Shown: positions 15,101-44,543, counted from the first letter of the whole stretch. The stretch: 56,631 nt of DNA, filler included, from Jimgerdemannia flammicorona (GCA_003990765.1; 3 parts of 3 records of this genome joined end to end with filler, not necessarily neighbours in it), one strand, 5' to 3'. Program-made: numbers and translations. The notes: a model not told the origin generated them from the sequence alone.

Positions 15101-15227
15101 ATCAAGAAGAAGGACTAATTGGTTCAAATGTTAACTTCTTAGTTCTTCAGCCAAAGATCATAGAAGTCAAGAAGTTGGAGGAGAAGAAAAGGATTCTGAT
15201 CTACTGAAAGAGAAGTATTTGCTAGCA

Positions 15228-19405: not shown

Positions 19406-19578
19406 TTTATTTACTAATAGAGATAGTGGAGGCAGTGGAGGATGGGGTAGCAGTATTGATAATAGAGCTCAATCCATTAATATAGGTAGTAGAGGAGACA
19501 GTAGAGGAGATGGTAGAAGAGATAGTAGATTGGTATAGGAGAGAGGTAGTATATTATTATAATAGAATATATATATAT

Positions 19579-20054
19579 TGTAACGTAGTGGATGCTTACT
19601 CTTGAAAGTATGTCAGATTTCTGTATCTTGAAAACTTGACTGTTCTGACTCTCGCAGAGTCTCTTGAAGTTGCAGGGGAGGGTGGGTGAGTTCGAAGTGT
19701 ATCTGCTCACAGGCTTACTAGTTCCTTTGCTATCTCTTTGCTTTGAACTATTTCGATCTGAGGTTTATTCACTCAAAGATACTGGGTTATTTATACAAGT
19801 TTGCTAGCTATGAGAGGGTGGCTAAGTAATAAATGAGTCATTTGGACTTTGTCGAAACATTTGGACAATGTCTAAATACTATACTAAATTGGGACATTCA
19901 ATTTGGATAATGTCTAAAATTTAGACAATGTCTAAGAATTTTGACAATATCGAAATCAGCGACTGCTAACTATAAGGCTATACTACTTTGGGAATGGGTG
20001 CGATCAAGTGTCTATTCCCTATTTCCTTCTTCCAAATTTAGCTGTACCATCACA
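19579..20054 (-). repeat. 3' LTR of family A element
   Basis: Direct repeat of 25835-26310 with ~22 mismatches by manual count. Confidence 0.95.
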
Positions 20055-20133
20055 ACTTCCTCCTGAATAGATGGTCTCGTCCCTGAGGCATCTATTCAAA
20101 CTCCCAGGCTTCAACTGTCTATATGGTCTTGTA

Positions 20134-20553
20134 CTATGCAATTTGCTGCATGACTGTTTCCCAATGATGTCTTCTCACTTTCTCGAAGTCAGTAGGGGTT
20201 ACTTCTCTCAGATGGTCTATTGCTGGTTCATCTTCTCGGAATAACTTGTGGATCCTTTTGGCGATAGTGATCTGTGAGTAGGAGAGTTGACACTCAGCAA
20301 TCCAGTCCTCCTTGGTCTTTGCTGGATCCTGATTGAGCACCTGTCCAAGCTTGAAGTACTCTTGGAATTCTGCATGATACTGATAGGCTCTAAAGTGCGA
20401 GATCCGAGAGAGATGGGTCTGTACAATACTCTGAATATCCTCATAGTATGGCTCTATGGTTGGAGGCTCAGTGGTGTGCCATTGTCTATCAATGGCTCTT
20501 TGGGCAGTACTAGTGATCTTGAGTGCCATTGCAGTACTTTTGTTACTGGCCAT
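20134..20553 (-). CDS. Uninterrupted 139-aa accessory ORF between integrase and PPT; function unknown
   Basis: ATG overlaps the pol end (pol TAA at 20543-20545). No TM or signal segment. Ungapped similarity to the family B LTR ORF. Confidence 0.75.
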   Translation of the reverse strand: MASNKSTAMALKITSTAQRAIDRQWHTTEPPTIEPYYEDIQSIVQTHLSRISHFRAYQYHAEFQEYFKLGQVLNQDPAKTKEDWIAECQLSYSQITIAKRIHKLFREDEPAIDHLREVTPTDFEKVRRHHWETVMQQIA

Positions 20554-23500
20554 GATATTTCTTGAGTCGGTTTCGGTGAATGGTGGTGGGGATTATTGTG
20601 CCTGAGGGTTTCCATAGCCAAAAGGTGGTCCCTTTTATATCTTGCACAAGGTAAGGTCCTTCCCACTTGGGCTCCAGTTTTCATGACCATGAAGCTTCTA
20701 CCATGTTCGGATATACTAGGACTTTGTCTCCTATCTTGATAATCTCCAAGGGCTTGTGGGTCTTTTCCGCATTCCTCCGTTATAGTATCTGTGCCTTGGT
20801 TATGTAATCCTCAGCCTTCTTCCTGATTTGGTGTAGTCTCCGTATTTCTATATCCACATGTTTCCATACAGCATCTCTATTGGATGATAGGGTTTCTTGA
20901 GAACATTCTTCTCCAAACAGCATTTCTTGAGGGGTAAAGTGGGTACTTTGTGATCGGATATCCCAGAGAGCAGATAATGCTATTGGCAGATAGTGATCCC
21001 AGTTCTCATAGTTATCACAGATCTTGGTGATAACATTCTTGAGGGTTTTGTTGGTCCTTTCTACTTGTCCGTTTCCTTGAGGGTGATAGGCTGTGGTCCG
21101 AATGTGCTGGATCTTGTATTTCTTGGAGAGAACTTCGAAGAACTGGTTCATGAATTCTGTTCCTCTATCTGTAGTTACTTATGTTAGGGTCTTGAACCGA
21201 CAGATGATTTCCTTATGGAAGAAATCGGCGATTGACTATGCATTGGCTTCCTTGAGGGGTCCTGCTTCTATCCACTTCATAAAAAGGTCTACAATGACAA
21301 TGATATATTGGTTACCAGTCAGGGTCAAGGGTAGAGGGCTGATTACATCCATTGCTATATGGGCAAATGGTACTGGTTCTATGTGTGCTGATCCTGGAGC
21401 TTGATTCCGTTAGTCTTGTTTCTGTTTCTGGTATTTGTTGTATGTTTTGATGAATTGTCTGATATCTTCCTCTATCCCTGGCCACTATATTATTCTTCTT
21501 GCCTTATTGTATGTATTCGTTCCTCCTAGATGGCCAAGTTCATGTACTGATTTCATCGCTTGCTCCTTCTTGTGTTCTGGTATGACTAGTAGTTTTCCTT
21601 TCTTCAGTGTTTCTCCATTGGTTTTGAATTGTTTCCATGTCCTGTTGATAATTGTTTGTGTCCATTCTTCCAGATGTTGGGGCATCTTTCGCTGTCCTAG
21701 GTATGTGATAATTCCATAGTAGAGCTCCTTATTCATGATTGATCTGTTGGTTGGAGGTAGTTCAAGGTGTCCATGAGAGAGTATCTGCATTGGAATTTGT
21801 TCTTCTAGGGCGGTATACAATGGTTATATCATAGGCTTGTAACTTCATTATCCATTTGGCATAGATTCCTTTGGGTTGTCCAGTTGTCAGTAGCCAGGTG
21901 AGAGCTGAGTGGTCCATCTGGATGGTGAAGTGTCTTCCAGCCAAGTAGTAGTGGAACTTTTCTATGGCCCAGATGACTGTGAGGCATTCCAACTTGTAGG
22001 ACTCGTATTCTTTTTCAGCTCCTCGGGTTCTGCAGCTAAGATATGCAATAACATACTCCTTTTTGTCTTCTTTTTGAGCTAGGACTGCTCCTAGTCCCTG
22101 TGCACTTGCATCCATCTGAAGGATAAATTCTTGGGTCCAATTGGGTCGTCTGAGGATAGGTGCCTGGGTCAGTCTGACCTTGAGTTCATCAAATGCTTTC
22201 TGTTGTCTGCTAGTCCACTGGAACTTGGTATCCTTCTTATTGAGTTCGTAGATTGGACCTGCGATGTTGGAGAATCCTCTAATGAATCTGCAATAGTAGG
22301 AGGCAAGTCCCATGAAGGCTTGGGCTTCTGTAACAGTGGTGGGTCTTGGGTATGCTGCCACTGCTTGTATCTTGAGGGGGTCTGTGTGTGTTCCGTCTCG
22401 ATTGATAATATGGCCAAGATAGGAGATCTCGATTTCTGCAAACTTGCACTTCTTGGGTTTGATATAGAGGCCATGTTGTCTTAGTCTCTCCATTATCTAC
22501 TGTATGTGCTGCAGATGTTCCTCAGGTGTCTTGCAGTAGGTGATTACGTTGTCAACATAGACCATCATCCATCTTCCCATGTCATAGTGGAAGATTTTGT
22601 TCATTATATGCTGGAAGCTTGCTGGTGCATTGCACATTCCGAATGGCATTTGTAGGTAGATGTAGGTTCCGTCTGGGGTGATGAAGGCTGACTTTTCACT
22701 TGCCATTTCTGTGAGTCTGATTTGGTAAAATTCTGAATATAAGTCCAAGGTGCTATAGTACTGTGCTTCATCTCCCAGTATTATAAAGATGTCACTGATG
22801 AGTGGCAGTGGTTGGCAATCCTTCTTGATAACTGCATTGAGCTTTCTGTAGTCGACACAGAGCCTTGGGGCAAATTCTCCAGGTTTGCTTCCTTTTTTCG
22901 GAGCTAGTACAACTGGTGAAGACCAGGAGCTACTGGCTTCTTTGATGATGCCAGCTTCTTCTATCTGCTTGATTTCTTCTCTGAGCCATTCTCGGTAGGC
23001 TGGTGGGACAGGTCTTGCTTTCTGGTAAATTGGTTCAGTGTCTCCAGTATCTATCTCGTGATAGTAGTATGGGGTCTTTCCCTTGATATCCTTGAAATCT
23101 GTGGCAAAGACATCCTCGAATTCGTGGAGTATTTTCTTGAGTTCCTCCTTGAGTGGGAATTCATCTCCAATTGTGTAACTGTGCTTGCTCATGTTTTCCT
23201 CCTTCTTATGCTCGAGTTCAGTGATCTTGGTGCTGGCGAATACTCCTCTTCCTGTGGATCTGAATCCTTTCTTTCCTCTTTTCATTTCCTCCAGATTCTT
23301 GACTTCTATGATCCTTGGCTGTATGATCGGGAAGATCAACATCTGTGCCAATCGGTCCTTCTTCTTGACTGGGAATGGAATTGTAGGATTGTGGTTCCTA
23401 GCAATGAGTAGAATTTCTCCAGTATAGTCTGAATCGATGACTCCTCCTTCAATTGTGATTTTGCTTCTAGCCAGGCTGCTTCTTGTCTTGAGAATCCCGA

Positions 23501-25720
23501 CATGATCCTTTAGGATGGTCATCTCTAGTCTGGTTGTGAGTAGGGTGGTTGTCTGGGGTTCGAGTACAGTTTCTTCTACTGTAGCAATGTCCATTCCAGC
23601 TGTATTTTCTGACTTGTATTCTGGTAAGACTGCATCAGGGTGGATCTTTTGAATCTTGACCTTGATTTCTTCTTTGTCATCACTGTCCTTCAGGAGAGCT
23701 GGTGGTTCATCATCTTCCTCCTTCTCTTCTTCCCTGATCTGTTCTTCGAGAGCTTTCTGCCTTCTTTCTGGTGGATCTTCCTGATTCCGATGGTGCACTG
23801 GTAGCAATCGTTGACATGCTCCATACAGTACATCTTGATTCCATGAGGGCAGACTCCTTGTGGTGCATAGCCTTCTGCCATCTTCTTGCACCATTCTTCT
23901 TCACTCATCCATCCAACTTTCTTCTTCTTTGGAGTAGTCACCATATAAGCTTCCTCTTGCTTGCTCTCTTCTTCCTCCATATTGGGCAGGACTCCTTTGT
24001 TGACATTGATGGGAATTTGTATCTTCTGTCCCCGGTAGGTGATTTGCATCTTCTGGGCATTGAGATCGATTACTGCCTTGGCTTTGTGAAGCCATTGATT
24101 GCCGATGAGGATGTCATAGTTGGTGGTATTGGTTATGATTACATCTACTGGGATTGTTGCTCCTCCAATCTTGATGGAAACATCTCGGATCTTTTTCAGA
24201 GGTGTGGCTCTTGTGCCATTGGCTGTGACGAATACTAGCTTAGTTGCTTCTTCCACATCCCAACCTAGGCGGTCTGCTGCTTTCTTGCTGAGGAGACATC
24301 CTCCTGCTCCTGTATCAATGATGGCTTCAAAGATTCTATCTTTGATTTAGCATGTTGCATAAGCAGAGGTTTTGTGATTGTCCTCACTTTCTTCTCCTGA
24401 GTCCTCTTGAACATTGTTGGCCTCAGTTATCTTCCAGCCTTGCTCCTTGGTGGTTTCTGCAAGTCCAAATCTCATTTGCTGTCTGAAAGTAGGTATTTCT
24501 GTGAGCTGACCAAAGATTGCATAGACCTTTTGTTGACTGAGATCCTTGAAGATATCATACTTGAAGGTCTTGGTCTTGCGAAGCTTCTTTTCTTTTTCTC
24601 CTTCACTGGCTGGAGTGGTTCCTCAGATGATATCTTGAACTGCTTGCTCAAGCTCTATGTCTTGATCCATTTCTTCGGCTTGGCTTTCTGTGGCTATTTC
24701 CATCTGTCTTTCCACTGGGTTCTTCTTGGGTCTTTCTGGTGGTCACTTGTAAGGTTCTTTGTGAACATCCTTCTTGGTGGTCTGAGCAGGATAGGCCTCC
24801 CATTCCTCTTCATCGGAATCTCCAATTTCCTCAAAGGTAATTGTATTGGCCTGCTCCTTGTTTCGTGTAGCATTGCTTGGTTGAGCCTTGTGCTTGGTTT
24901 CGCTCATGCATTCGTAGGAGTAGTGGCCTTCTTCTCCACAGCTGTAGCAGGTACCTTTCTTCTTGTCTGAGGTGGCAGCAAACTTCTGAACAGGGTGGCG
25001 ATCTCTTCCTCAGATTTCCTTTACCACATCTCCCAGATGGGCAGTCATTTCAGCAAACCTTTTGGCGAGTTCCTCCATAGGGTCACTGTTCTTTTGCTGC
25101 TCTGTAGCTTTTGGCTGAGGTGTGTTTTGATTGATCATTGTGATAGGGATCACACTGGTTGCCTTGGGTGCCTCAATTCTGACTCCTGTAACTCTCTCCA
25201 TTGTATGGTCTTGTGGGTGTCTGGCTATCCACAATCGCTGAGCATAGGTGACCTTCTGTGGCAGATCCAGAATCACTGGTGATGAGCAGATGGCTATGGC
25301 TATTTCTGGATGGACTCCTTTCATGAAGGTTGCTTCGGCTACTTGATCTTGGATAGCAGCAGCATAATCTGCAAGGATTATCTGATATCAAATTCTGGTA
25401 TAGAATGTGTTTGGATCCTCACTCATTCCTTGGTACATTGTGTTGAGCTGATCCTTCAGGGCTTGCTTGATCTCATCTGTATAATATGTGTTTCGGAGCC
25501 AGGTCTTCTGTACCATCAGTATGGCATCGGCATCATTTCCTGCATGGGTTGCACCTGTGAATGCTGCTCTGGCAGAACCTCGTAGGCTGAAGGGCATGAG
25601 GGCTACTTGCTGTACTGCTGTCAGGGTCCTTACAGTGGCATACTGCTCAAAATCATCAATGAAGGTGATGATTGATTCATCTGAGGTATATCCATGAAAT
25701 ACTGGTGGTCTCATATCCAT
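20543..25720 (-). pseudogene. gag-pol of family A (gag, CCHC knuckle, aspartic protease, Cys/His module, dUTPase, RT, RNase H, integrase with GPY/F)
   Basis: MDMRPPVFHG start; CYSCGEEGHYSYEC; IIDTGAGG; MPFGMCNAPASFQ; YVDN (mutated YxDD); QMDASAQGLGAVL; TAYHPQGNGQVERTN; KWEGPY. Contains premature stops and frameshifts. Confidence 0.93.
23250..23665 (-). other. dut: dUTPase domain between protease and RT (family A)
   Basis: All five trimeric dUTPase motifs: AGMD, RSSLA, GVIDSDYTGEI, DRLAQ, RGKKGFRSTG. Confidence 0.95.
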
Positions 25721-25834
25721 CTTGTCTAGGTATTGGGGCTCAGTTTGTATGGTTGTTCGGGTAGTGTCAGTTGTTTGTTGTTCAGCTTGAAAGTGAGGGA
25801 TTCGTCTTGAATCACCAGCTAATGGGCACCAAGT

Positions 25835-26310
25835 TGTAATGTAGCAGATGCTTACTCTTGAAAGTATGTCAGATTTCTGTATCTTGAAAACTTGACTGTT
25901 CTGACTCATGCAGAGTCTCTTGAAGTTGCAGGGGAGGGTGGGTGAGTTTGAAGTGTATCTGCCCACAGGCTTACTAGTTCCTTTGCTATCTCTTTGCTTT
26001 GAACTATTTCAATCTGAGGTTTATTCACTCGAAGATACTGGATTATTTATACAAGTTTGCTAGCTATGAGAGGGTGGCTAAGTAATAAATGAGTCATTTG
26101 GACTTTGTCGAAACATTTGGACAATGTCTAAATGCTATACTAAATCAGGACATTCCATTTGGATAATGTCTAAAATTTAGACAATGTCTAAGAATTTAGA
26201 CAATGTCGAAATCGGCGACTGCTAACTATAAGGCTATACTACTTTGGGAATAGGTGCAATCAAATGTCTATTCCCTATTTCCTTCTTCCAAATTTAGCTA
26301 TACTATCACA
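25835..26310 (-). repeat. 5' LTR of family A element
   Basis: TG..CA ends, 476 bp, followed on the minus strand by ACT + TGGTGCCCATTAGCTGG. Confidence 0.95.
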
Positions 26311-28779
26311 ATATATATAATATCTGCTCTATATTAAGATATATCACAATAAAATTAATATTATATATATTATATCTAGAACAGTACTATAATATATTTA
26401 TAGACTCTAGAATTATTCTAGATATATACCAGATACTATACTAAATAGTTCAGATATGTATTATATAAATTACCAGATTATTGTATAGAGTTACTAGATA
26501 TTATAGGATATAAATTGATATCTGAGTATTATTTTATATCTAGATATACTCAGATTAGTCAGATATCTCTTAATATTTTTATAATGCTATTGGGATAATA
26601 ACTACTGATATAAATACTAACTCACATTTATATCTAACTACTTCCACTATAATAAAGAAATAGGAGATACAACCTATACCTCCAGATAACCCTCAAGATA
26701 GAACTAATGACCTCATTTCTTAAGTATAAGTAATATAAAGAATAACTACCAGCTTACTATAATCCTGCAATATATAGTTCCATAATCTACTGAAGATATA
26801 CTGATAGCAAATTTGAATAATATACCCCTTCTCTGCTCTCCAATCTATACTCAGCATATGAGACAGATGATATATACCATTCTGTAGGATGATCACTTCA
26901 TTCTAACATATGTACTACTATATATATAAATAAATAGAGAGATATAATCCAAGAACCACTCTTTCTAGACAACTACTTTATCAGAGATAATATCATTAAT
27001 AGTGACCTTATTAAATAATATTCAGACAGTATTGAAATCTATAAATAGCTTAGCAGTCATTAGTATAGTTATTAGTTTAGTATAATATAACTATATTCTA
27101 ACTTATCAGTCAGTAGATCTCTTGATATATTAGTTCACACTTTGTATAACATAATTATATTCTGATATAATAAGTACTAAAGTACTATATCCATATTTAG
27201 TCTAGTCTAGATATATAACCTCTCATTAGTATAAATACCCCCTCTCTCAGATCTTAGAAACTCAGACAGAAATTGGGATAAGAATCAGATAAATACTTTT
27301 TCATATAAATATTCCTTTATACACTACTCTTAGTATTAGCTAATAGCAATATTATAAATAGTCACAAGTGTTTTGACAGCAATTGATATAGAGCTGAAGA
27401 AATGATTGAATTTCAATTACTGGATCTTTGATACTATATATAGAATATTGTTGTAAGTAGCCCCCAGAATAAATCTATTTAATAATCTACAAATCACTCT
27501 TAAGTAAACCTATATTATATTAGATTCTGCTCCTAACTAGATCTAGAAATTTTCTAATTTAGTATTATCTATAACAATATACCAATTCAACTAAGCTGGT
27601 TTTAGTTTTTTCTTTCTGAAATAAAGAAAATCCTGAACATCCAGAACAAGTCTGATAAAGAACTTTGATTAAAATATCAATTCAATCATAAAATCAATAA
27701 GTATAGAGAATATACTCTATATATATAAAATTGATCTTAATCTTAAGAAATTAATCTTCTAGAATATCTAAAACTTTCTGAAAACCCCTTCCAGAACTAT
27801 ATAATGGTACCTTTATAAAGTATTCTCTTACAACTTTGTAGTAGTGGTCTACAATCTAATTTTACTTTAAGATGTTTCCTCACTTAGCTATAATTCTCAA
27901 CAGAAATTCCTATAAGTTGATATAAAGCCCAATTACTGAACTGGAATTTATCCCAAACTATCTCAATCTGAAGTAAATTGAATTTAATATATAAGAACAA
28001 TTAGACCTCTATATCTGTAATAAGTAGGACAAACTTCATATATACAAAGAAGTACTCCAATTAAATAAACAGATAGATAAAACCCTATTTATCAAACTTC
28101 TTACTCTATATACTACAAGTTAAGATGAAAAAGGTCTTATATGTAGAAGTCTTCTTTATCCTTCTCAATAAGAGTTTTATAAGCTCTACAAATCTAAACA
28201 ACCTAGGACAACCAGCAGCTATATTTCTAGCCCTAGTTTCTCACAAAGCCCAAGCCTCTATAGTCAAGTAGCTCAACTATACTGACTACTACCATACCAG
28301 AACTAAGACTGCTCTATACTACTATTTTCAGAATTGCAAGACTCACTATATTCATAAAGAAGAAGATAGAGAAACTCTTTATAACAATCAGACTCTGAGT
28401 CAGAAGTAGGCCTAGTTAGAACTTTATCTGAATCTGAAACCAAACCAGAAATAAATCCCAATCTCAAAAGAGCTTTTGATTTAAGCCCATCTGAACTCTG
28501 GTATATAATTGATATCATTTACTTTGATACTAACAAATCCAGCTCTATCAAGACTAAAGTGAAGAAGAGGAGAAGTATCTTAATGAATTTGATCTCAGAT
28601 ATACTACCAAAGGAGATATCTATCTCAGGATAAAATATATCCACAGAATAACAAATATTTATTTATTAGGCCCTTATATAGTTACTCTAGTAACTTATAT
28701 AAACTCAAGAAATACCATCATACTTCACACTAATATCTCAAATTATATCAGTAACTCCATTATCAGTAGTTCAACTATC

Positions 28780-31700
28780 TCCTATAAACAATATAGCAAA
28801 TTAACAAATTTAAGACCTTATAGCCCAGATAGGTATAATAGTAGCAACTATTACTATCTTAGCCAAACAGACTCAGCCAACTAAAAGTGAGAGTCTATCT
28901 ATTTTTAATAGTACTATACAAGAAGTCCAAAGCTTTATTAGTATAGTAAATATTAATTTCAAAGCCAATCAATAGACTAATGAGCAAGTTGCAAACTATA
29001 TCTTAATGAACAACTATTGAACAACCTTTTGTCACTACTATGGCTAATGTTTATATTGTGGAATGTGGACTTTGGAGAGAGAAGCAAACTGTTTATTGCT
29101 AATTCTTATGCACTTTTACACGTCACAATTAGTGACATTTACATGATGATGTAGTCAAGGAAGACTGTGCCACCATATATCAAGTTGTAACCTACATATT
29201 TCAATACTTCTGCTCAACAAGATATGCAAATTTCCAAACTGCAATACTAAGCTATAACCACTGCAAATCTTGCTGCAATATTCAGACCGCTATCTAGAAA
29301 CCAAAAAACATCTGAATTGCCTGCTTAAAGCTTGAAAAATAGGTTGAAAAGTAGAGATGTGAACATTCATAGATAAGCAATGTTGGTAGAAATCTGCAAT
29401 ATAGTGATAGGGAAAAGAAATGCATTGAATATGAAATAGATTTCGAAATTGATCTGCCAAAATACTTCTGTATAGCTCACTATTGTTGTTGTTTTTTATT
29501 GCTGGCATATAGTTTTTGCTGCCATAACTCCCATTCCCTTTATGCATAGATCAAATCTTGTCTTTGGGAGGGCTTTCATTAATGAATCTGCTATCATACT
29601 CTCCATTGGAGTGTATTCCAGGTGTATAGTGTTGTTTTCCATGTATTCCCATATGAAATAATGCTGTATATCGATGTGTTGCATTCTAGCGTGGTGTATA
29701 GGATTCTTTGCCAAAGCAATCATTAATTGGTTATCTTGCTGGAGTAGTGTAGAGTGCTGTTGCTTGTATCCCAGCTCCTTTAACAGTTCTCGAAGCCAGA
29801 TAGCCTCCTTTGTTGCCATTGACAATGCTTGATATTCTGCTTGTATAGAGGATGTTGCTACTGAAGGTTGCTTACATGTTTGCCATGAAATGGCTCCATT
29901 GTTTACTTTAAAGATGTATCCAGTTATAGACCTTCTGTCATCTAAGTCGCTGGTCCAATTGGCATCACAAGAACCGAATAGGCATATAGTACTCCTGCTT
30001 TGCCCATTATCACCACCCAAACTGAGTGTATAGTCCATGGTTCCTTTGATGTATCTGAAAATTCACTTAATTGCCATCCAATGGCTATTGTTATAGCATG
30101 AAGAATACTGCGCCACTTTGTTTACCACAAAAGAGATATCAGGTCTCATCCCTTGCATAAGATACATGAGGGATCCCATGGCTTATCAATAGGGGATATC
30201 ATTTCCCTCAGACATAGTGTCAGACTTCTTTAGTTTCATGAATGTTTCTATAGGTGTCCTGACTGGTTTGTATTCACTCATCCCAAATTGCTTGAGAATA
30301 TTTCAAATATATGTAGCTTGCGTTAGGTGTATAGTGCACTCATGCCTATTATGTGTAATTGATATTCCAAGGAGATAGGATGCTTCGCCTAAGTCCGTCA
30401 TTTTGAATTCCTGGCATAGTATAGCCTTTACATCGTTGATTTCACTTGCCATTCCAACTAAAATAATATTGTCAACCCAAATTCCCAGATATACCATTCC
30501 TGAGGATGTATGTCAGGTATATATGTATGGATCGGCTTCACAATGCTTGAATCCAGTGTCTAGGAGATATCCATCGAACTTTCGATTCCACAATCTTGCC
30601 GCTTGCTTGATTCTGTAGAGCCCTTTGCATAATTTACATATGAGCTCATTTCTGTCATTGTTGTATAGTTCGTATCCTTGTGGTTGTCATACGTATAACT
30701 CCATATCTACGTCACCGTTCAAGAATGCTGTCTTTACGTCCATTTGGTATATTTCATAGTCATACTTGGCTCTGATTGCAAGAAGTATTCTAAGCGAAGT
30801 CAACTTAAATACTGGAGAAAATGTCTCATCATAGTCTATGCTGTGGCCTTACGAGTACTCCTTTGCTACAAATTGAGCCTTATACCGTTCTATGTTGCCA
30901 TTAGCCTTATGCTTGATCTTGTAGACCCACTTTGATCCTATAGCTTGTCGCTCTGCTGGAAGGCTTACTAGATCCCAAGTGTTGTTTTCGATGAGTGAAC
31001 TGTACTCCTTGTCTATAGCCCTTCTCCACTCCTTATCATTTGAGTGAATGGCTTCATCGTAGTTCTCTGGTTCGCCGGTTGTTGCAATATATGCACATTC
31101 ATAAGAATTGGTGTAGTTCACATGATGTTCACTATTGTTGCTATGACGGGATGTCTTAGGCAGGTCCCAATAACCTCCTAAATCCATATCTAGAACTCTG
31201 AATTTGTACTTTTGTTTGCCCTTCAGAGAGGTATCCTCTTCGTCATCCTCATCCATAATTTCTATTATCCTTAGTTCTTGCAACTTCATTGCCGTTTGAA
31301 TGGGTTGTGCTTTCACTGGCTGTACCATCAAATTCACTGTCAGATTCACCATCAGATTCAAGATAGGAATTTCCACATAAATTTCCTGCTTAGTCTCCTT
31401 GAACTGTACATCACATGAAATGATCATATGTCATTTCTGTAGGTTCCAAAGTCTGTATCTCGCTCCATTGTATTCAAGGAATATGTATATGCTTATCTGC
31501 CTTAGGTTCGAACTTGCCTCGGTTGCCACCTTTGTGCCTTGCTTCCAAATATGCGTAAGTGTGAAATGTCAGGCTTGGATCCATTCTATAATTCCTCAGG
31601 GGTAAGATTGCTGTCGTTCCTGGATTGCTTGCCAGGATCCTTGCTTAGAGCTCGAGAGAAACAATGATTTCAAATATATGCTGCCATATTCACCACTTCC

Positions 31701-34306
31701 ACCTAAAAGGACTTCGGTAAGCTGGCCGTATTCATCATCATTCTAGCCATTTCCACTATCATTCGATTGAATCGTTCTGCCATGCTCTTTTGCTGAGATG
31801 TATAAGGGGCTGTCATAGAGTGCTGTATACCATTCTTCTTCAAGAAGTATCTGAAACCTTTATTGACGTATTCTTTGCCATTATCTGAGCATAGGGTTCG
31901 TATTCTATGTTCCGTCTCATTCTCTACGGCTGCCTTGAATTCCCAGAATTTGTCAAATACCTCATTTTTCCCTGCAATGAGATATATGTGGACTTTGCAT
32001 ATATAATCATCAATGAATGTAATAAAATACTTCTTCCTGAAGTGTGATGCTGTTCACATGGGGCCACAAATATCCATATGAATCAAATCGAGAATGTCAG
32101 CTGCTCACTTCGTTCATTCCTGAAAAGGTTGCCAGGAAGCCTTGTTTGCCATGCATCTATCGCAAAAGAAATCCGGTGGCATATAGTCTGGTAAACCATA
32201 CACGGACTTGTTCCTTACCATCTGTTCAAGACTCATTTTACCAATATATCCTAAGCATTCATACATTATATGCCAGAAATCCTCTCCTGTCATAGTTGTA
32301 GAATATGCGGATATAGTGCCACTCAGCATGCCATTGATTGCATATAGATTCCCCTTTTTCAATGCGTACATTAACTCCTTATTGTTCTTCAGATTGATTA
32401 TTGTTACACCATTTGGACATATATTTACTCCTCTGTCCCTATGAGCCATCATCTGGCCTATCGAGAAGAGGTTCTTGCCTATATCTGGAGTATATAATAT
32501 GTCCACAAAGGTGCCTGAAGGTTCATCAATGTTTCCATGAAGATGTATGCCTATGTTGCCTTTCTCTTAAGTGTAAATGACATTATTGTAACCTAGCTTG
32601 ATAGGTATGGAATGCTCGAACTTCTCGTACATAGAGAACCACTCCCAGTGAGCCATCATATACTGTGTTACACCTGAATCCATGAGCCAGACCTCTTCGC
32701 TGCATGCATAAGTGCTGTTTGGCATATAGCTTACATTTGCACTGGTGCTGACGTTGACGTCACCATTTTTTGCTGTCTGAAAAGTGTTTCCTTTATCAGG
32801 ATTTGTAGATGTCGAATTGCCACCGCATTTGCAACTGGCATTGTTTTTCGAATTATCTCCTGCTTCTGCATATAGATAGGTTGCTGCTTCTGTAAAGAAT
32901 AGACCTCCCCCATTACCACCACTGTCATTATTGGCATCTACCATATTTGCCTGCCATTGTCCACCTTTCTCCTTTTTCTTGCGGTTGCAGTCCTTTTCAT
33001 GATGTCTGAGCTTGTCACAATAGAAGCATTTCCCAGCAAATTTCTAACTATCGCATTGCTAGCTCTTGCCTCAGCCTTTATTTGACTTGCCTTTGCTGTT
33101 GCCTCGTCCACATGCTCTGCCATAAAAGGCTTTTTCCTTGCCATCATTGTCTTCATTGGCATTCAGCCTTGTTTCCTTGTTTAATAGGCTCATGATAACA
33201 TGCTTGTAATCTGATAATTTGCTGGACTCTCTCATAGCTGCAACGACAATGTTGTACACCTCTGGAAGGCCTTGTGTAAGGGTCAGGACCTTGTTTTCAT
33301 CTCTAATGGCATCCTCTGGCATAGTTGTAAGGGAATTCACTTGATTCACTAGCTCGTCGACTCGGTTGACATATTCCCGGATATTCTCCATTGACTTCAT
33401 TCGAAGATTGAATAATTGTGTCTTCAAGTGGAATCTGTTCGAAGCGAATGCTTGTTGGTGGTGATTTCACAAGATGTCCCAGGCTTTGTTCGCCATCGTA
33501 GCATTGATTACGAGCTTTATTTGCGTATTCAAAAGGGTAAACATAATCTCCCTTAGTGCCTTATAATCATTAGTAGCATTGTACCCCATAATCTGTACCT
33601 GTGGCTTCCAATAGTCCCCCAAACTACATTCTTTAAGGAGATTCTTCATATGATACACCCATATAGTGTAATCTGTACTGTCAAAGACAGGAATCATCCT
33701 TTTTACTATGTTTATAGTTGTAGGTGCCACTATCGTTGTTGTTGTCATCATCATAATAGGGGCTGCCATACCCATACTGGTACCCGAGCCTGTATTACTG
33801 CTGGGGCTTAGTGCACTGCTAGCACTGCTTATATTCATGTATAGCATAGTGTAGCATATGTGTTAGAGAGTGTATTATAGCCACTAAGCAGGGCTCATAA
33901 CCTGTTGTGGAATGTGGACTTTAGAGAGAGAAGCAAACTTTTTATTGCTAATTCTTATATGCTTTTATGTGTTGCAATTAGTGATATTTATATGATGATG
34001 TAGTCAAGGAAGGCTGCGCCACCATATATCAAGTTGTAACCTATATATTTCAATAGTTTACTAAGTTGTTACATTCTTTTGAGGACCTGCTGAAGAATAG
34101 TGGTAAACCCTTCCTGAAAAATCTCTCACATAAGATACCCAACCTATAGTTGTTGCTCAAAATGTATTAAATAATATCTCTAGATATAGAAACCACCCTG
34201 CAGCTCCTGGGCTCAAATAATTCATAATTGTCTAATATTATAGTAAGACTCTAATTGCTGATTTCTGAGTCAAACTCTATTAACCTCAAATTTGATATAC
34301 ATATAT
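28780..34306 (+). mobile_element. Old Gypsy-like gag relic interrupted by the Copia element
   Basis: Before the Copia TSD: eroded (P)xFxG...V..FI......F.AN.(W) pattern. After it: gga cct gct gaa gaa tag tgg = GPAEE(W)W, a gag motif. Heavily mutated; boundaries approximate. Confidence 0.45.
29054..34055 (-). mobile_element. Full-length Ty1/Copia LTR retrotransposon, inactivated
   Basis: 153-bp LTRs at 29054-29206 and 33903-34055; 5-bp TSD GTTTA on both sides; PBS GGTTATGAGCCC (33891-33902); PPT TTGAGCAGAAG. Motifs: CCHC CFYCDKLRHHEKDC, WLMDSG, DLIHMDICGP, KWVYKIK, WVDNIIL, SCDANW. Order PR-IN-RT-RH. Confidence 0.96.
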
Positions 34307-37300
34307 TATAATGGTGACCCCAGAATGATGACATCAGCACAGGAGACAGCCTTTCCTTACAAGCCACCAGATCAGAGCACAAGAAGATCATATAGCATAT
34401 GAGATGAGCAATGATAACCAACTGTGAGTCATTGTGACCACAGCACAAGTATCCTGAAGAATATAAAAGAAGGATCAAGGAACTGCAGTAGCAGCAACTA
34501 ACAAGAACCACCAATCCCAAAATAGTCAAAGACTTACCATAAACAAAATGCCTACTGCCCACCAAACCTCAAGGTCAAGGAATTACCAAGATATCTCAGT
34601 CAAGGAAAGGATGTTCCAAGACATCAGAAGAGCTATGAGGACCCACTCAAGAAGGACTTCTAGTATTAATCTGGGTACTACAGACTCTTATTACTTCATT
34701 CTCTACTGTCATGAAATGGAAACAAGGATCACTATTGCTACCGAATGCCTCCAAATGTGGCAGGAGTATGAAATAGGAAACCTCCTCTGCTAGGAGTTCC
34801 CACAGGCCAGTACCCAAGAGCTATAAGATGTAACTTTCATGGATATATATGAAACAAGGACAGCTAAGAAGATCCATCAGATCTTCAGGCATGCACTATG
34901 GTCGATCCCCAACTTGGAGTATGTTAGGGTCTCAGACTTCAGAGACCTATCATTCCACCATATCAATGCACTAGAAGCCAGGGTGGCTACAGAAGTCCAG
35001 TCCACTATTACCCTCAACAGTGAAGAAGTAGAAGACTTCTGGCATCCTATCCTTCAGGACAATCCAGACCAATTCCTGCAAGGATTGGTCTCAGTATTCC
35101 AAGGCCCAAGCATCCAGGTTAGACACCCCACATTTGTTCCCTATTTTGTGGAAGAGAACCTCATAGACAGGAGAGCTCCAGATCTTGTTCCCGATTTTCC
35201 CACCACAGCTGAACGTGATGACATCATCCCACATGACATCAATATATGTGAGACATATAACAAAGTATGTGAAAATGATGAATTCGCAGACCTCATCTCC
35301 TTCAGTGATGATGATGATGAGGAAGAAGCTCCCATGGTCCTGAACTTTCTGCTTTAAGTTCTTTGTTACACTGGATAATACCAGCACTGGTATTCTGAGG
35401 TGATGTGATATTGTTCCAGTACTGGCATTTTGATGTGATACTAAATAATGCCAGCATCCTGAACCTATACAACCATCAGTACTGACTCTGGAACTTAGTA
35501 GTTTTAGTTATTGGAATTTATATTTAGCTTTATATCTTAGCAACCATTGAATTATATTTTGTATAAATACCCCTCTTATTTTCTCTGAAATAAAGTCAGT
35601 TCCAGTTTCACTTATATACACTTCCTTGCAAGCAATCTAAGAGATAACAAGACAGTTAAAGATAAGGAGTTTGAGAACTATAAGACCTTGGGAAGGCACT
35701 CCAATAAGAACTTGCTTATAACAACTTGAGTTAGTCTAAGAGATATACCTTGAATAGAATCTGGCATATTTGAAGGACTCAGCAACCACTACATGACAAC
35801 TTGGTACCCATTGGCTGGTGATTCAAGATGAATCCCTCACTTTCAAGCTGAAAAACGAACAACCCCCACAATAACTACCCTGACTACAAGAGTCACCCCT
35901 GCAAGAATTTAAGACAAAATGGAAATACATCTCTCTATATTCTATGGATATACTACTGAAGAGTCAATCCTGATCTTCATTGAAGACTTTGAACAATTCA
36001 CTGCCATATGAGCCCTTGGTATGGATGCTCAATTGGCCCTTCTACTAGTCAGCCTCAGAGGACCTGCTAGAGATAAGTTTAATGCAGCCACTATTGCTGG
36101 TGCTGATGCAGTCAAACTTACCAACATGAAGGCCTTCCTCAGAACAATATATTATACCAAAGAGATCAGGCAAGCTCTCAAGTATCAACTCAATACTATC
36201 TGCCAGGGACTTAGTGAAGATCCCAACTTATTCTATACCTGAATCTGCCACCAGATTGTCTTGGCTGGCTATGATGATGCCCTCAAGGAACAAATAGTAG
36301 ATTCAACCTTCCTCAAAGGAGTTCACCCTGAAATTGCCCTAGCAATCTGGTCTACCCTAGCTGCACTGACCCTTGATCAGAAAGTGGTCTTTGCATAGAG
36401 ATATTGGACTGCCAGACACCCTGCCAAACACTCAATGGAGAAAATAACTGGCATCAAGATGGAGCCATCAAAGCCAACTAGTATCTTACCTGCCACAGTT
36501 GTAAACAGATAACCAACCCCACCTACCCCCAAGATAGCCAAAGCTGACCCAGTGGAAGAACTTGCCAAGCAGTTCACTGAGATGACTGCACACCTCGGTG
36601 ATGTTGTTAGAGAAGTCTGAAATGCCAACAGGAGACCAGTGCAGAGATTTGCAGCTGCTATAGAAGAATGCAATATCACATACTTCAGATATGGAGAAGA
36701 AGGCCACTATGCAAAGAGTTGCATGACTGAAACGAGACACAAAGCCCAACTAAGCAATTCTAGCAGAACCAGAGAACAAACCAATGCAGTAGTCATCAAG
36801 GAGATTGGTGACACTGATGATGAAGAATACTATGAAGAGCTCGAATTCTACCCTGCTACTGAAGGTACCAGAACCCAGTCTAAGCCCTATGACAAGAAGA
36901 GCAACAGTAAGCCAGTTGGAAGACCAAAGAAGACCCCAGCTATCACTATTCAAAGTAAGACCCAACCCAAGGAGATTGATCAAGACATAGAGTTAGATGA
37001 AGCTGCCTGCCAAATTATCGAAGACACTACCCCAGTCTCAGGAGAAAGCAAGAGCAAGAAGGAACAGAAGCTGCATAAGACCAAGATCCACCAGTATGAC
37101 ATCTATAAGGACCTTAAGGAACAGAAGGTCAATGCCACTTTTGGGCAGCTAGTTGAAGTCCCTGCCTTCAGATAGCAGTTGAGAGTAGGACTTGCAACTA
37201 CCACCAAAAATCAAGAGTATAAGATTGTAGAAGCTCACAATGCACAGGAAGAATCCAAGAACTCAGGTGAAGAATCCGAAGACCAGCACAAGACATCAGC

Positions 37301-37724
37301 CTATACCCTATGTCAGATTGAAGATTGTATCTTTGATGCCATCATTGATACTAGTGCTGGAGGATGCCTCATGAGCAAGAAGACAATTGACTGCCTAGGA
37401 TAGGACATTGAAGAGTCCACCAAAATGGTCTATGTTATAGCAGATGATACACGAGCTACCCCCCTTGGCAAAATCTGAGAAGTCCCCATCAAGATAGGAG
37501 GAGCTACCATCTCAGTAGATATGATTGTTACAAGTACCACCAACTATGACATCCTCATTGGCAACTAATGCCTTCACAAGGCCAAGGCCATCATTGATCT
37601 CAATGCCCAGAAGATATAGATCAACTACAGAGGAAGAAAGGTACAAGTCTCTATCAATGTCCACAAAGGAGTCCTACCAGACATGGAGGAAGGAGATGAA
37701 GAAGACACAGAGGTCTTCATGCAC
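34307..37724 (+). mobile_element. Ty3/Gypsy family B copy 1: ~1.49-kb 5' LTR (34307-35798), PBS, gag, protease; truncated by gap
   Basis: Homology to copy 2 starts exactly at T(G>A)TAAT and the LTR ends ..catgaca followed by acttggtaccc. gag is homologous to family A; IIDTSAGG protease motif. Confidence 0.88.
34548..35357 (+). pseudogene. ~270-codon accessory ORF inside family B LTR, homolog of the family A 139-aa ORF
   Basis: One frame with two stops (TAG 34791, TAA 34824). The first stop is Gln in copy 2. Motif AKKIHQIFR..IPNLEYVRVSDFRDLSFHH; acidic C-terminus. Confidence 0.72.
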
Positions 37725-37824
37725 NNNNNNNNNNNNNNNNNNNNNNNNNNNNNNNNNNNNNNNNNNNNTTAATTAATTAANNNNNNNNNNNNNNNNNNNN
37801 NNNNNNNNNNNNNNNNNNNNNNNN
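37725..37824. other. Assembly gap with artificial TTAATTAATTAA spacer
   Basis: 44 N + TTAATTAATTAA + 44 N. Confidence 0.97.
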
Positions 37825-40800
37825 TCAATATAGACAAAGAGCTATTTTCCAATCTTATTGCTGAAGACTCTATTCATCATTTGCTGAAAACTTGTTAGGA
37901 TATTGTATATTCCAAATAGTATTCACAGATAGATATAGATAGTATCAGGTGTGATAAAGGCTGATTTCACACTGACATCTTGAGTGAGACCAATCTGATG
38001 GAAGTCTGAGAACAGATCCAAGGTAGTGTAGTATTTGGCTTCACTTCCAAGAGTGGTAAGGATTTCTTGAATATTTGGCAAGGGCTGCCTATCCTTCTTG
38101 GTGATTGCATTGAGCTTTCTGTAGTCAATATAGAGTTTTGGGGCAAACTCTCCAGGCTTGCTTTCTTTCTTTGGGGCAAGGACAATAGATAAAGCCCAGT
38201 GACTGATAGCTTGCTTGATAATTCTGGCTTCTTCCATTTCCTTGAGTTCTGCTTGCAGCCATTCTCTATAGGCAGGTGGTATAGGTCTGACTTTCTGATA
38301 AATGGACTTGGTATCACTAGTGTCAACTTTATAATAGTACTTAGGTTCTTGATTGTGGATATCTCTGAAGTCTGTAGCAAGTACTTCTTTATTCTGGTGC
38401 AGAATCTTGAGAAGTTGTTCTTCCAGGGGAAAGTTTTCTCCAATAGTATATGTGTGCTTATTCTGGTCTCTGTCTTTCTTGTACTCAAGTTCAGTAATCT
38501 TGGTGGCAGCATAGGCTCCTCTTCTAGTAAATCCAAAGCCTTGTTCTCCTCTCTTGGTCTTGATGAGTTTGATGGCTTCAGTGATCTTAGGCTTCTTGAT
38601 TTTGTGGATCAGCATCTGGCTAATCCTGTCATGCTTCTTGACTTCAAATGGGGTAGTGGGGTTGTAATTCCTAACTATGAGAAAGATCTCACCAGTGTAA
38701 TCAGGGTCAATTACTCCTCCTTTAACTGAGATTTCACTTTTGGCCAGACTACTCCTGGTCTTGATAATTCTAGCATAGTTCTCTAGTAGCTTGACTTCAA
38801 TTCTAGTACCAAGTAGAGTAGTAGTCTGTGGTTTGAGGATAGTATCTTGAATACTAGTAAGATCTATTCCTATGGCTCCTTCAGTCTTGTATTCTAGGAT
38901 CTTAGCTTTGGGGTGAAACTTCTTAACCTTGAGAGTAATGTCTAGTTCTTGTTCCTCCTCATTATCACTATCAGCTTGCAGCTCTAGGGGCTAGTCATCT
39001 TCTTCAGCTTTTCTTTTTGCTTCAGTGGCTTCTTGCTCATGCTTCTGTTGGCAGATTTTCCTAACTTCACTGATACAGAACCAGTAGTCATTTAGGTGTT
39101 CAGAGTAGTACATCCTAGTATCATAGGGACATCTTCCTTGAGGGGCATAGCCATTAATGATCTTATTATACCACTGCTCATCTGTGAGCTTGGGTGTCTT
39201 GTTCTTATTCTTATTCACTGAGTATATGAAGACTTCTGTGTTCTCTTCATTTCCTTTCTCCATGTCTGGTAGAACTCCTTTGTGGACATCGATAGAGACT
39301 TGTACCTTTCTTCCTCTATAGTTGATCTGTATCTTCTGGGCATTGAGGTCAATGATGGCCTTGGCCTTGTGAAGCCATTGGTTGCCAATGAGGATATAAT
39401 AGTTGGTGGTGCTTATAACAATTACATCTACTAGGATGGTAGCTCCTCCTATCTTAATGGAGACTTCTTGGATTTTGCCAAGGGGGGTAGCTCATGTACC
39501 ATCTGCTGTGATACAGATCATCTTGGTGGACTCTTCAATGTTCTAGCCTAAGTGGTCAATTGTCTTCTTGCTTATGAGACATCCTCCAGCACCAGTATCA
39601 ATAATGGCATCAAAGATACAATCTTTGATCTGATATGGAGTATAGGCTGATGTTTTGTGCTGGTCTTCAGATTCTTCATCTGAGTATTCTTGATCATCTT
39701 CTTATGCATTGTGAGCTTCTACAATCTTATACTCTTGATTCTTGGCAGTAGTTGCAAGTCCTACTCTTAACTGCTGTCTGAAGGCAGAGACTTCAGCTAA
39801 CTGTCCAAAAGTAGCATTGACCTTCTGTTCCTTGAGGTTCTTATAGATATCATACTGGTGAATCTTGGTCTTGCACAGCTTCTGTTCCTTCTTACTTTTG
39901 CTTTCTTCTGAGACTAGAGTAGTGTCTTCAATGATTTGGCAGGTAGCTTTATCTAACTCCATATCTTAATCAATCTCCTTGGATTGGGTCTTGCTTTGAA
40001 TAGTGACAGCTGAGATCTTCTTTGATCTTCCAACTGGCTTGCTGTTGCTCTTCTTATCATAGGACTTGAACTGGGTTCTGGTACCTTCAGTAGTAGAGTA
40101 GAATTCAAGCTCTTTATAGTATTCTTCATCATCAGTGTCACCAATCTCCTTGATAACTACTGCATTGGTTTGTTCTCTGGTTCTGATAGCATTACTTAGT
40201 TGGGCTTTGTGTCTTGTTTCAGTCATGCAACTCTTTGCATAGTAGCCTTCTTCTCCATATCTGAAGCATATGATATTGTATTCTTCTATAGCAGCTGCAA
40301 ATCTCTGCACTAGTCTTCTATTGGCACTTCAGACTTCTCTAATGACATCATTAAGATATGCAGTCATCTTGGTAAACTGCTTGACAAGTTCCTCCACTGG
40401 GTCAGCTTTGGCTACCTTAGGAGTAGGTAGAGATGGTTGTCTGTTTACAACTATGGTGGGTATGATACTAGTTGACTTTGATGGCTCTATCTTGATGTCA
40501 GTTATTTTCTCTATTGAGTGTTTGGTAGGGTGTCTGGCAGTTCAATATCTCTGTGCAAAGACCACTTTCTGATCAAGGGTCAGTACAGCTAGGGTAGACC
40601 AGATTGCTAGGGCAATTTCAGAGTAAACTCCTTTGAGGAAGATTGAATCTGCTATTTGTTCCTTGAGGTAGTCATCATAGCCAGCCAAGACAATCTGGTG
40701 GCAGATTCAGATATAGAATGAGTTGAGATATTCACTGAGTCTCTGGCAGATAGTATTGAGTTGATCCTTGAGAGCTTACTTGATCTCTTCAGTATAGTAT

Positions 40801-42999
40801 ATAGTTCTGAAAAAGGCCTCATATTGGCAAGTCTGGCTGCACTAGCATCAGTAATAGTGGCTGTATTGAACTTATCTCTGGCAGGTCCTCTGTGGCTAAC
40901 TGGTAGAAGGGCTAATTGTGTATCTATATTGAGAACTCATATCCCTTTGTCTGTAGATAAGATCATCTTTTAAAATCATTTAGCAGACAAATTAAAGTTT
41001 GAAAAAAATGATTTTTTGAAACATTGTTTTTCTGTTAAAAATATATCTCAATTTGTTTAAAAACAATTTTTTTTTTTTTTGTAAAATTTTTACCAAAGGT
41101 AGAATTATTATATAAAAAATTATTGGTAAATTTTTTTTTAAAAGCTATTATGATTTTAAAAGTTATAAACTTTTAAAATCTTGCCTCTAAATATAGGTGT
41201 AAAATAGTTAAAGGGATAGCAGCAAATTGTTCAAAGTCTTCAATAAAGGTCAGAATTAACTCTTCAGTAGTATATTCATAGAATATAGGGGGATACATTT
41301 CTATCTTATCTTGAATTCTTACAAGAGTGACTCTTGTAGTCAGGTAGTTATTGTGGTAGTTGTTCGTTTTTCAGCTTGAAAGTAAGGGATTCATCTTGAA
41401 TCACTAGCTAATAGGCACCAAGTTGTTATATAGTAGTTGCTGAGTCCTTCAAATATGTCAGATTCTCTTTAAGATATATCTCTTAGACTAACTCAAGTTT
41501 ATTATAAGCAAGTTCTTATTGAAGTACCTTTCCAAGGTCTTATAGTCCTCAAACTTCTTATCTTTAAACTGTCTTGTTATCTCTTTAGATTACTTACAAG
41601 AGATTGTATATAAGTGAACTAGAACTGACTTTATTTCAGAGAAAATAAGAAGAGTATTTATACAAAATATAATTCAATAGTTGCTAAGATATAAAGCTAA
41701 ATATAAATTTCAATAACTAAATAAAAATACTGGAATACAAAAAACTACTAAGTTTCAGAGTCGACATAGATAGTTGTACAGATTCAGAATACTGGTATAA
41801 TTTCAGTAATATAGGAAAATGGTGCTGGAATAATTCTGAGTTACACAAGGTCAGAATGCTGATAGAGGAATAGCTGTTATATAGAAAAAGGATGCTGGTA
41901 TAACTCAGTATAACTAAGGGACTTAGAGCAGAATGTTCAGAACTATGGGGGCTTCATCCTCATTGTTACTGAAGGAGATGAGGTCTATGAACATTTCATC
42001 TATCTTATTATATAAGTTGTGCATTTCATATACTTCATGTATATTGTGCAAGATGACATCATTACCAATGATATCATCACATTCAGTAGCAGCAGGAATA
42101 AGGAGATCTGGGGCTCTCTAGTCTATGAGGTTCTCTTTCACAAAATAGGGAATAAATGTAGGGTCTTGGGGAGGTCTAACCTGAATACTTGGGCCTTGAA
42201 ATAATGAGATCAATTCTTGCAGGAATTGATCTAGATTGTTCTGAAGAATGGGATGCTAGAAGTCTTCTATTTCATCACTATTGAGAGTGATAGTGGACTG
42301 GGCTTCTGTAGCCACTCTGGCTTCTAGTACATTGATACAGTGGGCTGACAGGTCTTTGAAGTCTGAGACTCTAATATACTCTAAGTTGGGGGTTGACTAT
42401 AGTGTATGTCTGAAGATCTAATAAATCTTCTTAGCTATATATATCTATGGAAGTAGTATCTTATAACTCTTGAGAGCTGGTCTGTGGGAACTCTTGGTAG
42501 AGAAGATTTCTTATTTCATACTTCTGCCACATTTGGAGGTATTTGGTAGCAATAGTGATCCTTGTTTCTATTTTACAGTAGTAGAGAATAAAGTGATAAG
42601 GATCTCCAGTACTCAGGTTGAGGCTAAGAGTCCTTCTTGTGCAGGTCCTCATGGCTCTTCTGATGTCTTGGAATATTCTTTCTTCAACTGAGATATCTTA
42701 GTAGTTTCTTAACCTTGAGGTTTGGCAAGCAGCAGCATTTTGTTTATAGTAAGTCTTTGAGCTATTTTGGGATTAGTGGGGTTTGTTAAGTTACTGCCAC
42801 TGTAGTTCCTTAATCTTTCTTTTATATTCCTCAAGATACCTGTACTGTGGTCACAATGACTCACAGTTGGTCATCATTACTCATCTCATAGTCTGAGTGA
42901 GTTACATATACTGTATGATCTTCTTGTGCTCTGATCTGGTAGCTTGCAGGGAAAAGCTATCTCTTATGCTGATATCATCATTCTGAGGTCACTATTACA
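37825..42999 (-). mobile_element. Ty3/Gypsy family B copy 2: 5' LTR (41424-42999) with ORF relic (41923-42738), gag, PR, Cys/His module, dUTPase (~38520-38940), start of RT; truncated by gap
   Basis: Inverted homolog of 34307-37724. dUTPase TRSSLAK, GVIDPDYTGEI, DRI, RGEQGFG; RT IDYRKLN, LDLFSDFHQI. Confidence 0.9.
40943..41215. mobile_element. ~273-bp MITE with CCCTTT..AAAGGG termini and 2-bp AT TSD, inserted in family B gag
   Basis: Absent from copy 1. Removing it plus one AT gives ctcatatagcag, colinear with ctcatatggcag (reverse complement of copy 1). Confidence 0.8.
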
Positions 43000-43790: not shown

Positions 43791-44443
43791 TATCTCTTGG
43801 ATAATTAGAGAAACTAAGAACTTAGTATATAATATATACTAAGAAACTTTTAGTATGAGAAAGTATTTGCTTGAAAGTAGTTATAGCAGCAGTATTCTTC
43901 TTATCAACTATGGTTATAAGGAACTTGTTCTTTGCTATATACAGACTGCATTTGCTTTAGAATTTAGATTCAATAGGTTTACTTAAGTCTTTGGGATTTA
44001 TATACCAGTCTCAGTTCTGGTAGAAGTTAGCTAGGCTTTTGGAGTTTAGTTAGAAATATTAGAGTCACTTAGATATTATTACTAAGACTCAGGGGAATAG
44101 ATGTATAGAAGAGACTTAATTTTTATATCAAGAACTAAACTAAAACTATCTTTATTTTAGATAGAAACTAGGAGATATTTATATAAGTTGGTCTACAATT
44201 TCTGACTAAGTATAAGTAACTAATTTGGTAACTATGGTGAGATTTGTGATCAAGATCTCTATTTCTAGATAATGATCAGTACTAGTTGCTATGATACCAA
44301 TTGCTAGAGATAAACTGGATATTATTTATTTACATTATTTATATCATTTGCTACATTCATCATTCATATATCATATATCATATATCATGCTCAATTATGA
44401 CATTATTACTAGATCACATAATTACTCATTATTATATATTATG

Positions 44444-44543
<100 letters not shown>

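Follow-up and report, generated by a model that had tools for sequence, protein, structure and literature searches.

The window analysed here, a stretch of 56,631 nucleotides (nt) from Jimgerdemannia flammicorona (GCA_003990765.1), contains two truncated copies of a Ty3/gypsy-type retrotransposon, referred to as family B, whose long terminal repeat (LTR) appears to enclose an entire accessory gene. It is quite likely that positions 34307-35798 are the genuine 5' LTR of this element and that the whole accessory gene lies within the U3 portion of the repeat (Table 1). Genes inside LTRs are textbook features of a few complex retroviruses, with sag of mouse mammary tumor virus (MMTV) and nef of human immunodeficiency virus (HIV) among them. 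Judged by its layout, family B is best described as an LTR retrotransposon with a U3-embedded accessory gene, an arrangement of a kind known from retroviruses. Such a layout bears on the persistence and spread of transposon accessory functions. Since one sister family in the window has the gene outside the repeat (family A) and the other has it inside together with a remnant (family B), the pair may offer a direct view of a boundary moving over a gene.

The window consists of three contigs artificially joined by linkers, in which paired N runs (18814-18857/18870-18913 and 37725-37768/37781-37824) stand on either side of a TTAATTAATTAA spacer. Because of the linkers at 18814-18913 and 37725-37824, the inverted arrangement of the family B copies is an artefact, and the two are not neighbours. 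Copy 1 (34307-37724, plus strand) breaks off where its contig ends, and copy 2 (42999-37825, minus strand) is truncated by the start of its contig.

The initial annotation had located the accessory open reading frame (ORF) between a TGTAAT terminus and an ..ACA/primer-binding site (PBS) junction in both family B copies, and the ends found here bear this out. The LTR of copy 1 opens with TATAATGGTGACC at 34307, where the terminus reads T(G>A)TAATGGT, and closes with ..CATGACA at 35798, after which come ACT, the presumed PBS TGGTACCCATTGGCTGG and gag. The LTR of copy 2, which is on a separate contig, opens with TGTAATAGTGACC at 42999 (minus strand) and has the same build. The upstream flanks of the two copies are unlike except for an (AT)n run, and the boundary meets non-element DNA in both of the two cases. 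A 5' end that is common to two copies with different host flanks indicates that plus-strand synthesis began there. The start of the family B LTR, TGTAAT(A/G)GT, is similar to that of the family A LTR, TGTGAT(A/G)GT, and over the final 40 nt of the LTR together with the PBS the two families are ~85% identical. The window contains no tRNA genes.

The core of the LTR, with a TATA box followed by AATAAA, marks the U3/R transition and falls in a block (35503-35607) that is 95% identical between copies 1 and 2. The same arrangement of TATA and AATAAA occurs in the family A LTR, where the TATA box is the only collinear match to the family B LTR. No head-to-tail repeat was detected within the family B LTR. 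The ORF, together with the ~240 nt that precede it, is entirely downstream of the LTR start, and because the TATA box (35562) and AATAAA (35589) are both downstream of 34548-35357, the whole ORF is placed in U3. U3 is ~1.25 kb long because it contains the whole accessory gene. Beyond the LTR, the coding order of family B by tblastn is gag, protease (PR), dUTPase and reverse transcriptase (RT). The family B integrase (IN) is absent from the window; tblastn found no IN before 34307 or beyond 42999.

The location of the 3' LTR start was examined by aligning the window with contigs from four public sequencing runs at a likeness of at least 80%. A short 3' LTR with the ORF outside it, which the initial annotation had singled out as the outcome contrary to its proposal, could be checked indirectly on these contigs, and in them the polypurine tract (PPT) adjoins the TGTAAT start, upstream of the ORF. 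Four contigs of run X5 that reach the family B LTR start carry the consensus ..TCAAGAAGATCCTTATTCAGGAGGAAGATG just before position 34309 (among the loose ends listed), and the polypurine tract ..TTATTCAGGAGGAAGA in these contigs directly adjoins the TG at 34307. The tract is nearly identical to the one ahead of the family A 3' LTR (CTATTCAGGAGGAAGT followed by TGTGATGG). When the junction pattern was searched for in the window, the sole match was the family A 3' LTR junction, with 3 mismatches, and none of 100 shuffles matched. A PPT directly before the TGTAAT terminus implies that plus-strand priming, and hence the 3' LTR, starts upstream of the ORF. Along with the homology of the ORF to an internal ORF of family A (see below), the PPT before 34307 in the four X5 contigs upholds the proposal that U3 embraces a gene of the env position. 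In run X8, one contig matches the LTR as far as 35798 and then goes on for 255 letters of different sequence, and so represents an LTR end with no PBS behind it. The identification of X8 as RNA is a guess, and the uneven cover of the accessory ORF in this run was not used. Nor was use made of the ~2-3x deeper LTR bins relative to gag bins in run X1, as contig depth is no copy number. Contigs related to this stretch are also present in soil metagenomes, and no RNA sample is among the data sets listed as containing it.

The accessory ORF of copy 1 is interrupted by two in-frame stops (TAG at 34791-34793 and TAA at 34824-34826). A search of 5.8 billion protein clusters returned 6 relatives at E<=0.001 (E 1e-74 to 3e-30), encoded on JGI/ENA contigs that are only 720-2,375 bp long. 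One of these proteins, P0003, is intact at 271 amino acids (aa) and reads through the sites of both copy 1 stops. Among 1.84 billion representatives, a profile search recovered only 5 proteins, some of them more distant forms of 200-342 aa. The intact ORFs, of 215-342 aa, are 41-79% identical to P0003, and their insertions and deletions preserve the frame. Between copies 1 and 2, the frequencies of differences at codon positions 1, 2 and 3 are 0.17, 0.106 and 0.197, respectively, and the ratio of synonymous to non-synonymous codon changes is 32:51 in frame versus 18:68 and 12:69 in the other frames (Fisher p=0.0006). The intact homologues, the in-frame enrichment of synonymous changes and the homology to the family A ORF indicate that the accessory ORF is a genuine coding gene family, and the protein family is previously uncharacterised. 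The claim of a protein-coding gene inside a ~1.5-kb LTR is thus sound as regards the position of the ORF between the LTR ends and fails as regards its integrity, both copies being pseudogenes. A short upstream ORF that had been suggested at ~34398-34542 was not recovered, there being no plus-strand ATG-initiated ORF of at least 20 codons in that interval; the nearest one is at 34325-34402 and has 25 codons.

Family A provides the internal version of the gene. Its LTRs (TGTGAT(A/G)GT...TTACA) are direct terminal repeats at both ends of one element, and behind its 5' LTR come ACT and TGGTGCCCATTAGCTGG. The coding order on the minus strand is gag, aspartic protease, dUTPase (PF00692, E 4e-25), RVT_1 and a weak rve_3 integrase core. 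The dUTPase lies between protease and RT in family A (22500-23900, minus strand), with a homologous stretch in family B copy 2 at 37827-39005 (minus strand). With (AT)n bordering the element at either end, no unique target-site duplication can be called. The accessory ORF of family A overlaps the integrase frame, and the PPT, CTATTCAGGAGGAAGT, is ~25 nt past the end of the full A-type ORF. Its relatives comprise 8 proteins with 61-80% identity. Alignment of the A type with the B/D type by hhalign gave a probability of 88.9% and an E value of 2.4e-6; the 115 aligned columns correspond to the first ~150 B-type residues, and on this comparison the accessory ORF of family B is homologous to the internal, post-integrase (env-position) ORF of family A. 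The B type continues for ~115-120 C-terminal residues beyond the A type, and the net charge is -17 at P0003 residues 201-271, in agreement with the acidic extension absent from family A that had been described. The window also holds a cut-off, AT-enriched relative of family A (A3; 12166-15227, plus strand) that is ~75% identical to it, with an LTR from 12166, a PBS near 12650 followed by gag, PR and dUTPase, and a poly(T) run at its end.

Shortly past the stop codon of the copy 1 ORF is a stretch, TATTCTGAGGTGA followed by TGTGATATTG, that is similar to the family A sequence TATTCAGGAGGAAGT followed by TGTGATGGTA. Measured from the end of the ORF, this remnant at 35391-35413 occupies the place of the working junction of family A; it falls short of a purine run, and copy 2 preserves it poorly. 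The statement that the LTR has no internal PPT needs to be modified in this light: a degenerate stretch that resembles a PPT and LTR start is present inside. The decayed remnant probably fits an ancestral LTR boundary at ~35404. The layout of family B would then probably have been derived from an A-like layout, with U3 growing from ~395 to ~1,490 nt, as a duplicate PPT/LTR-start junction became established ahead of the gene and the old one decayed. Alternatively, the gene-in-LTR layout could be ancestral and family A derived from it, the PPT and LTR start having moved downstream of the gene and U3 having shrunk. B-type and D-type ORFs (family D is described below) are more widespread and more divergent among the matches, which speaks for this alternative, and the working junctions of families A and B are nearly identical, which means that the direction cannot be read from the junctions alone. 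Family B, however, keeps a decayed junction-like remnant where the working junction of family A sits relative to the ORF stop, while no matching remnant was seen upstream of the family A ORF, though none was sought there. An ancestral position within the LTR is considered unlikely.

Several observations weigh against the view that family B carries the gene inside its LTR or that the gene is a functional one. The first letters of copy 1 are TA instead of TG, and both copies of the accessory ORF in the window are pseudogenes. The PPT junction is known from four short contigs of one of the four runs, as a 30-letter consensus with 252 more loose ends unlisted, and the X5 contigs are too short to span the ORF. 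Neither the window nor the run contigs showed a full-length family B element, an entire 3' LTR or a solo LTR. The remnant after the ORF could in principle still prime. The candidate internal promoter ahead of the ORF (Table 1) is a mere TATA-like octamer kept in two related copies, and two AlphaFold runs with the accessory protein (7 and 13 rows) gave mean predicted local distance difference test (pLDDT) scores of 35.1 and 42.7.

It is possible to accommodate some of these points by supposing that the true LTR is short (~35404-35798) and that 34307-35403 belongs to the internal 3' part of another element upstream, with which copy 1 either forms a tandem sharing an LTR or has recombined. The PPT-like stretch and TGTGATATTG right behind the ORF, the exact order of ORF, PPT and LTR in family A, and the lack of a family B 3' LTR in the window would all be in keeping with such an arrangement. 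Both copies, however, stop at the same base with different host flanks and with no integrase upstream, the PPT adjoins 34307 in four contigs, and the remnant is non-purine and poorly kept in copy 2, which make a short LTR very improbable. That the ORF has no function as a gene and is simply a stretch of a long, non-coding U3 that is decaying and has stayed open by chance in some copies is hard to believe. In favour of this view, the ORF is disrupted in both window copies, the protein lacks a Pfam family and a confidently predicted fold, and very large databases yield very few homologues. Against it stand the intact ORFs of 215-342 aa with frame-keeping indels, a synonymous excess that is confined to the coding frame, and homology that extends across families A, B and D. 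An assembler's chimeric join at repeats, which might be suspected in a window of joined contigs where both family B copies are at contig ends, is a scarcely credible source of the long LTR, given that the same layout is found on two contigs differing by ~13% (447/3,384 aligned bases), that among contigs from four other runs those of X1 and X5 each cover 30 of the 30 bins, and that none of the 6 joints listed skips or removes the ORF.

The differences between copies 1 and 2 are dominated by transitions (393/447), and among C/T differences with an unchanged neighbour base 170 of 311 have A next. The observed/expected ratio of CpG is 0.00-0.27 in five element copies versus 0.95 in the gene-like 50-56.6 kb part of the window. 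Transition bias and CpG depletion together suggest that the elements have been struck by a repeat-targeted C-to-T process, either mutation or methylation.

If family B does carry the gene within U3, its replication would multiply the gene in a predictable manner. Genomic RNA would start just past the TATA box at 35562 in the 5' LTR and end past the AATAAA of the 3' LTR, and an RNA of this span would have one copy of the gene, located at its 3' end. With plus-strand synthesis primed from the PPT that precedes the gene, reverse transcription would then copy the gene into both LTRs of each insertion. The layout would therefore double the gene dose per element, and it would put a copy of the gene in every solo LTR. 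As for expression, the chances are about even that the gene is transcribed from its own TATA-like box (34462) to the LTR poly(A) signal as a ~1.1 kb message, which makes this the most likely route. A spliced subgenomic RNA, by analogy with MMTV sag and HIV nef, is a less probable alternative. It is conceivable, though doubtful, that each family B LTR is a self-contained cassette (TATA box, ORF and poly(A) signal) and that 5', 3' and solo LTRs all supply a family-wide factor acting in trans. Were this so, the factor could be, for example, an activator or an anti-silencing adaptor in a host that subjects its transposons to heavy mutation or methylation. The gene would survive loss of the element body as a 'public good' that outlives the element, unlike retroviral U3 genes, which rely on proviral splicing.

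The composition of the protein gives some hints of its role. P0003 has a basic N-terminus (net charge +8 for residues 1-45), and in B-type proteins the core is predicted to be helical and the tail is acidic, its conserved end reading DLISF..acidic..LNFLL. Pfam has no family for either stop-free piece of the copy 1 ORF or for the family A ORF, the best hit of a profile search of PDB had an E value of 0.87, and the top match in the ESM Atlas (score 0.83, TM score <=0.33) was not an informative neighbour. With no family and low pLDDT scores, any function is a guess from composition. The accessory protein may tentatively be pictured as a nuclear regulatory or adaptor factor that acts in trans on the expression or silencing of its own element. 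A scan of viral contigs found no relatives. The sole locus retrieved by a metagenome scan with the protein alignment (L001:10001-10237, 30% identity over 81 residues) was rejected as probably a chance match, as it is on an AT-rich contig with no retroelement genes by tblastn and with unrelated-looking ORFs.

The closest parallel in layout is MMTV, where the LTR is ~1.3 kb long and has the whole ORF for the sag superantigen in U3, as described in PMC2664473. As in family B, a whole accessory ORF is in a long LTR, upstream of the promoter core and hence in both LTRs. Family B differs from MMTV in being an LTR retrotransposon with a dUTPase rather than a betaretrovirus, in having no env that could be seen, and in being known from sequence alone. 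The nef gene of HIV and simian immunodeficiency virus (SIV) and the LTR ORFs of foamy viruses are given in the same source as 3'-position accessory frames overlapping U3 (PMC2664473). Unlike the family B ORF, which is wholly past the LTR start, nef overlaps U3 in part and its start is upstream of the PPT. The comparison with sag and nef made in the initial annotation is apt for the layout and does not extend to sequence or fold, as the Pfam and PDB results above indicate. Family A shares with family B the homologous ORF, the PPT, the PBS, the LTR-end motif and the gag-PR-dUTPase-RT order, and differs in that its ORF is upstream of the PPT and outside the 478-bp LTR, is ~150 aa long and lacks the acidic C-terminal half.

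Among plant and fungal LTR retrotransposons, additional ORFs (aORFs) are extra genes beside gag-pol that have no assigned function and of which some have their own promoter, according to PMC7264820. In contrast to the ORF of family B, the aORFs of plant elements described there are internal, situated either ahead of gag or in the interval from pol to the 3' LTR (PMC7264820). An 'add. ORF' is also named in a figure legend of PMC2864245, and that paper describes fungal chromoviruses with a dUTPase, namely PosPlaTy3-5 of Postia placenta, Phanerochaete elements and Tmt1 of Tuber (PMC2864245). These elements share with families A and B a dUTPase placed between PR and RT, but the passages on them report no LTR-embedded gene (PMC2864245). 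Any kinship of family B with them is tentative. In a full-text literature search that covered few subscription journals and no supplements, no LTR retrotransposon with a whole gene inside its LTR or U3 was found.

Table 1. Coordinates of family B features and of the related features of families A and D in the window (RH, ribonuclease H).
Feature	Position	Strand	Basis or remark
Family B copy 1, probable 5' LTR, 1,492 nt, accessory ORF inside	34307..35798	+	Termini, PBS, X5/X8 contigs
Family B copy 2, probable 5' LTR, 1,576 nt	41424..42999	-	Copy alignment, termini, flank
TATA-like box TATAAAAG, 79 nt 5' of the ORF ATG, candidate internal promoter	34462..34469	+	Identical in copy 2
Accessory ORF, copy 1, 269 sense codons plus stop (270 codons), pseudogene	34548..35357	+	67% full-length identity to P0003
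Accessory ORF, copy 2, pseudogene with two frame changes and ~7 in-frame stops	41923..42738	-	Comparison with copy 1 and homologues
Decayed PPT-like stretch TATTCTGAGGTGA plus LTR-start-like TGTGATATTG, probable ancestral LTR boundary	35391..35413	+	34 nt past the ORF stop
LTR core, TATAAATA at 35562-35569 and AATAAA at 35589-35594, U3/R marker	35562..35594	+	Located in sequence
Presumed PBS TGGTACCCATTGGCTGG (TGG..), 3 nt past the LTR	35802..35818	+	Kept in family A (25770-25875) and copy A3 (12648-12724)
Family B copy 1, gag and protease start, with stops	35919..37724	+	tblastn with family A proteins, 52-67% identity
Family B copy 2, PBS, gag, protease, dUTPase, partial RT	37825..41423	-	tblastn; dUT_RT 39005-37827, 57% identity
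Family A full-length element, LTRs 19578-20055 and 25834-26311 (~478 bp, 95.4% identical)	19578..26311	-	Reference for comparison
Family A accessory ORF, 152 codons, internal, after integrase and before PPT (20056-20070) and 3' LTR	20137..20592	-	Homologues P0012-P0019
Family D accessory ORF homologue, after RT/RH/IN and before LTR-type TATA/AATAAA	44850..45425	-	tblastn with P0009, E 1e-17 to 7e-30

A third gypsy-type family, family D, occupies 43843-49544 on the minus strand and is heavily decayed, with matches to dUTPase, RT and RH (RT/RH at 47080-49544). Its integrase end has a chromodomain-like stretch, as judged by eye. A poly(A) run of 100 nt lies inside the element (44446-44545), TATA and AATAAA motifs of LTR type are found near 44150-44190, and a 5' LTR is absent. 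A transition-tolerant alignment of family D with the family B LTR was collinear from position 1 of the latter, with a score of 246.5 versus a maximum of 209 in 30 shuffles. Family D was considered as an in-window example of a 3' LTR that holds the ORF, and was rejected since it has no second LTR and no clear PPT; its LTR start cannot be fixed for the same reason.

A copia-type (Ty1/copia) element at 29056-34058 on the minus strand, with a copia-type gag, Pol_BBD and RVT_2, ends 249 nt short of family B copy 1, and its terminal repeats (29056-29209 and 33905-34058) are 90% identical. A weak reverse-transcriptase fragment (RVT_1, E 2e-6) is located at 17095-17526 on the minus strand, in a stretch of ~50% GC with a strong negative GC skew (16001-18000). 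Within 6167-11322 (plus strand), six copies of a ~180-nt repeat are found at 8207-9580, between two protein-kinase ORFs (PF07714/PF00069).

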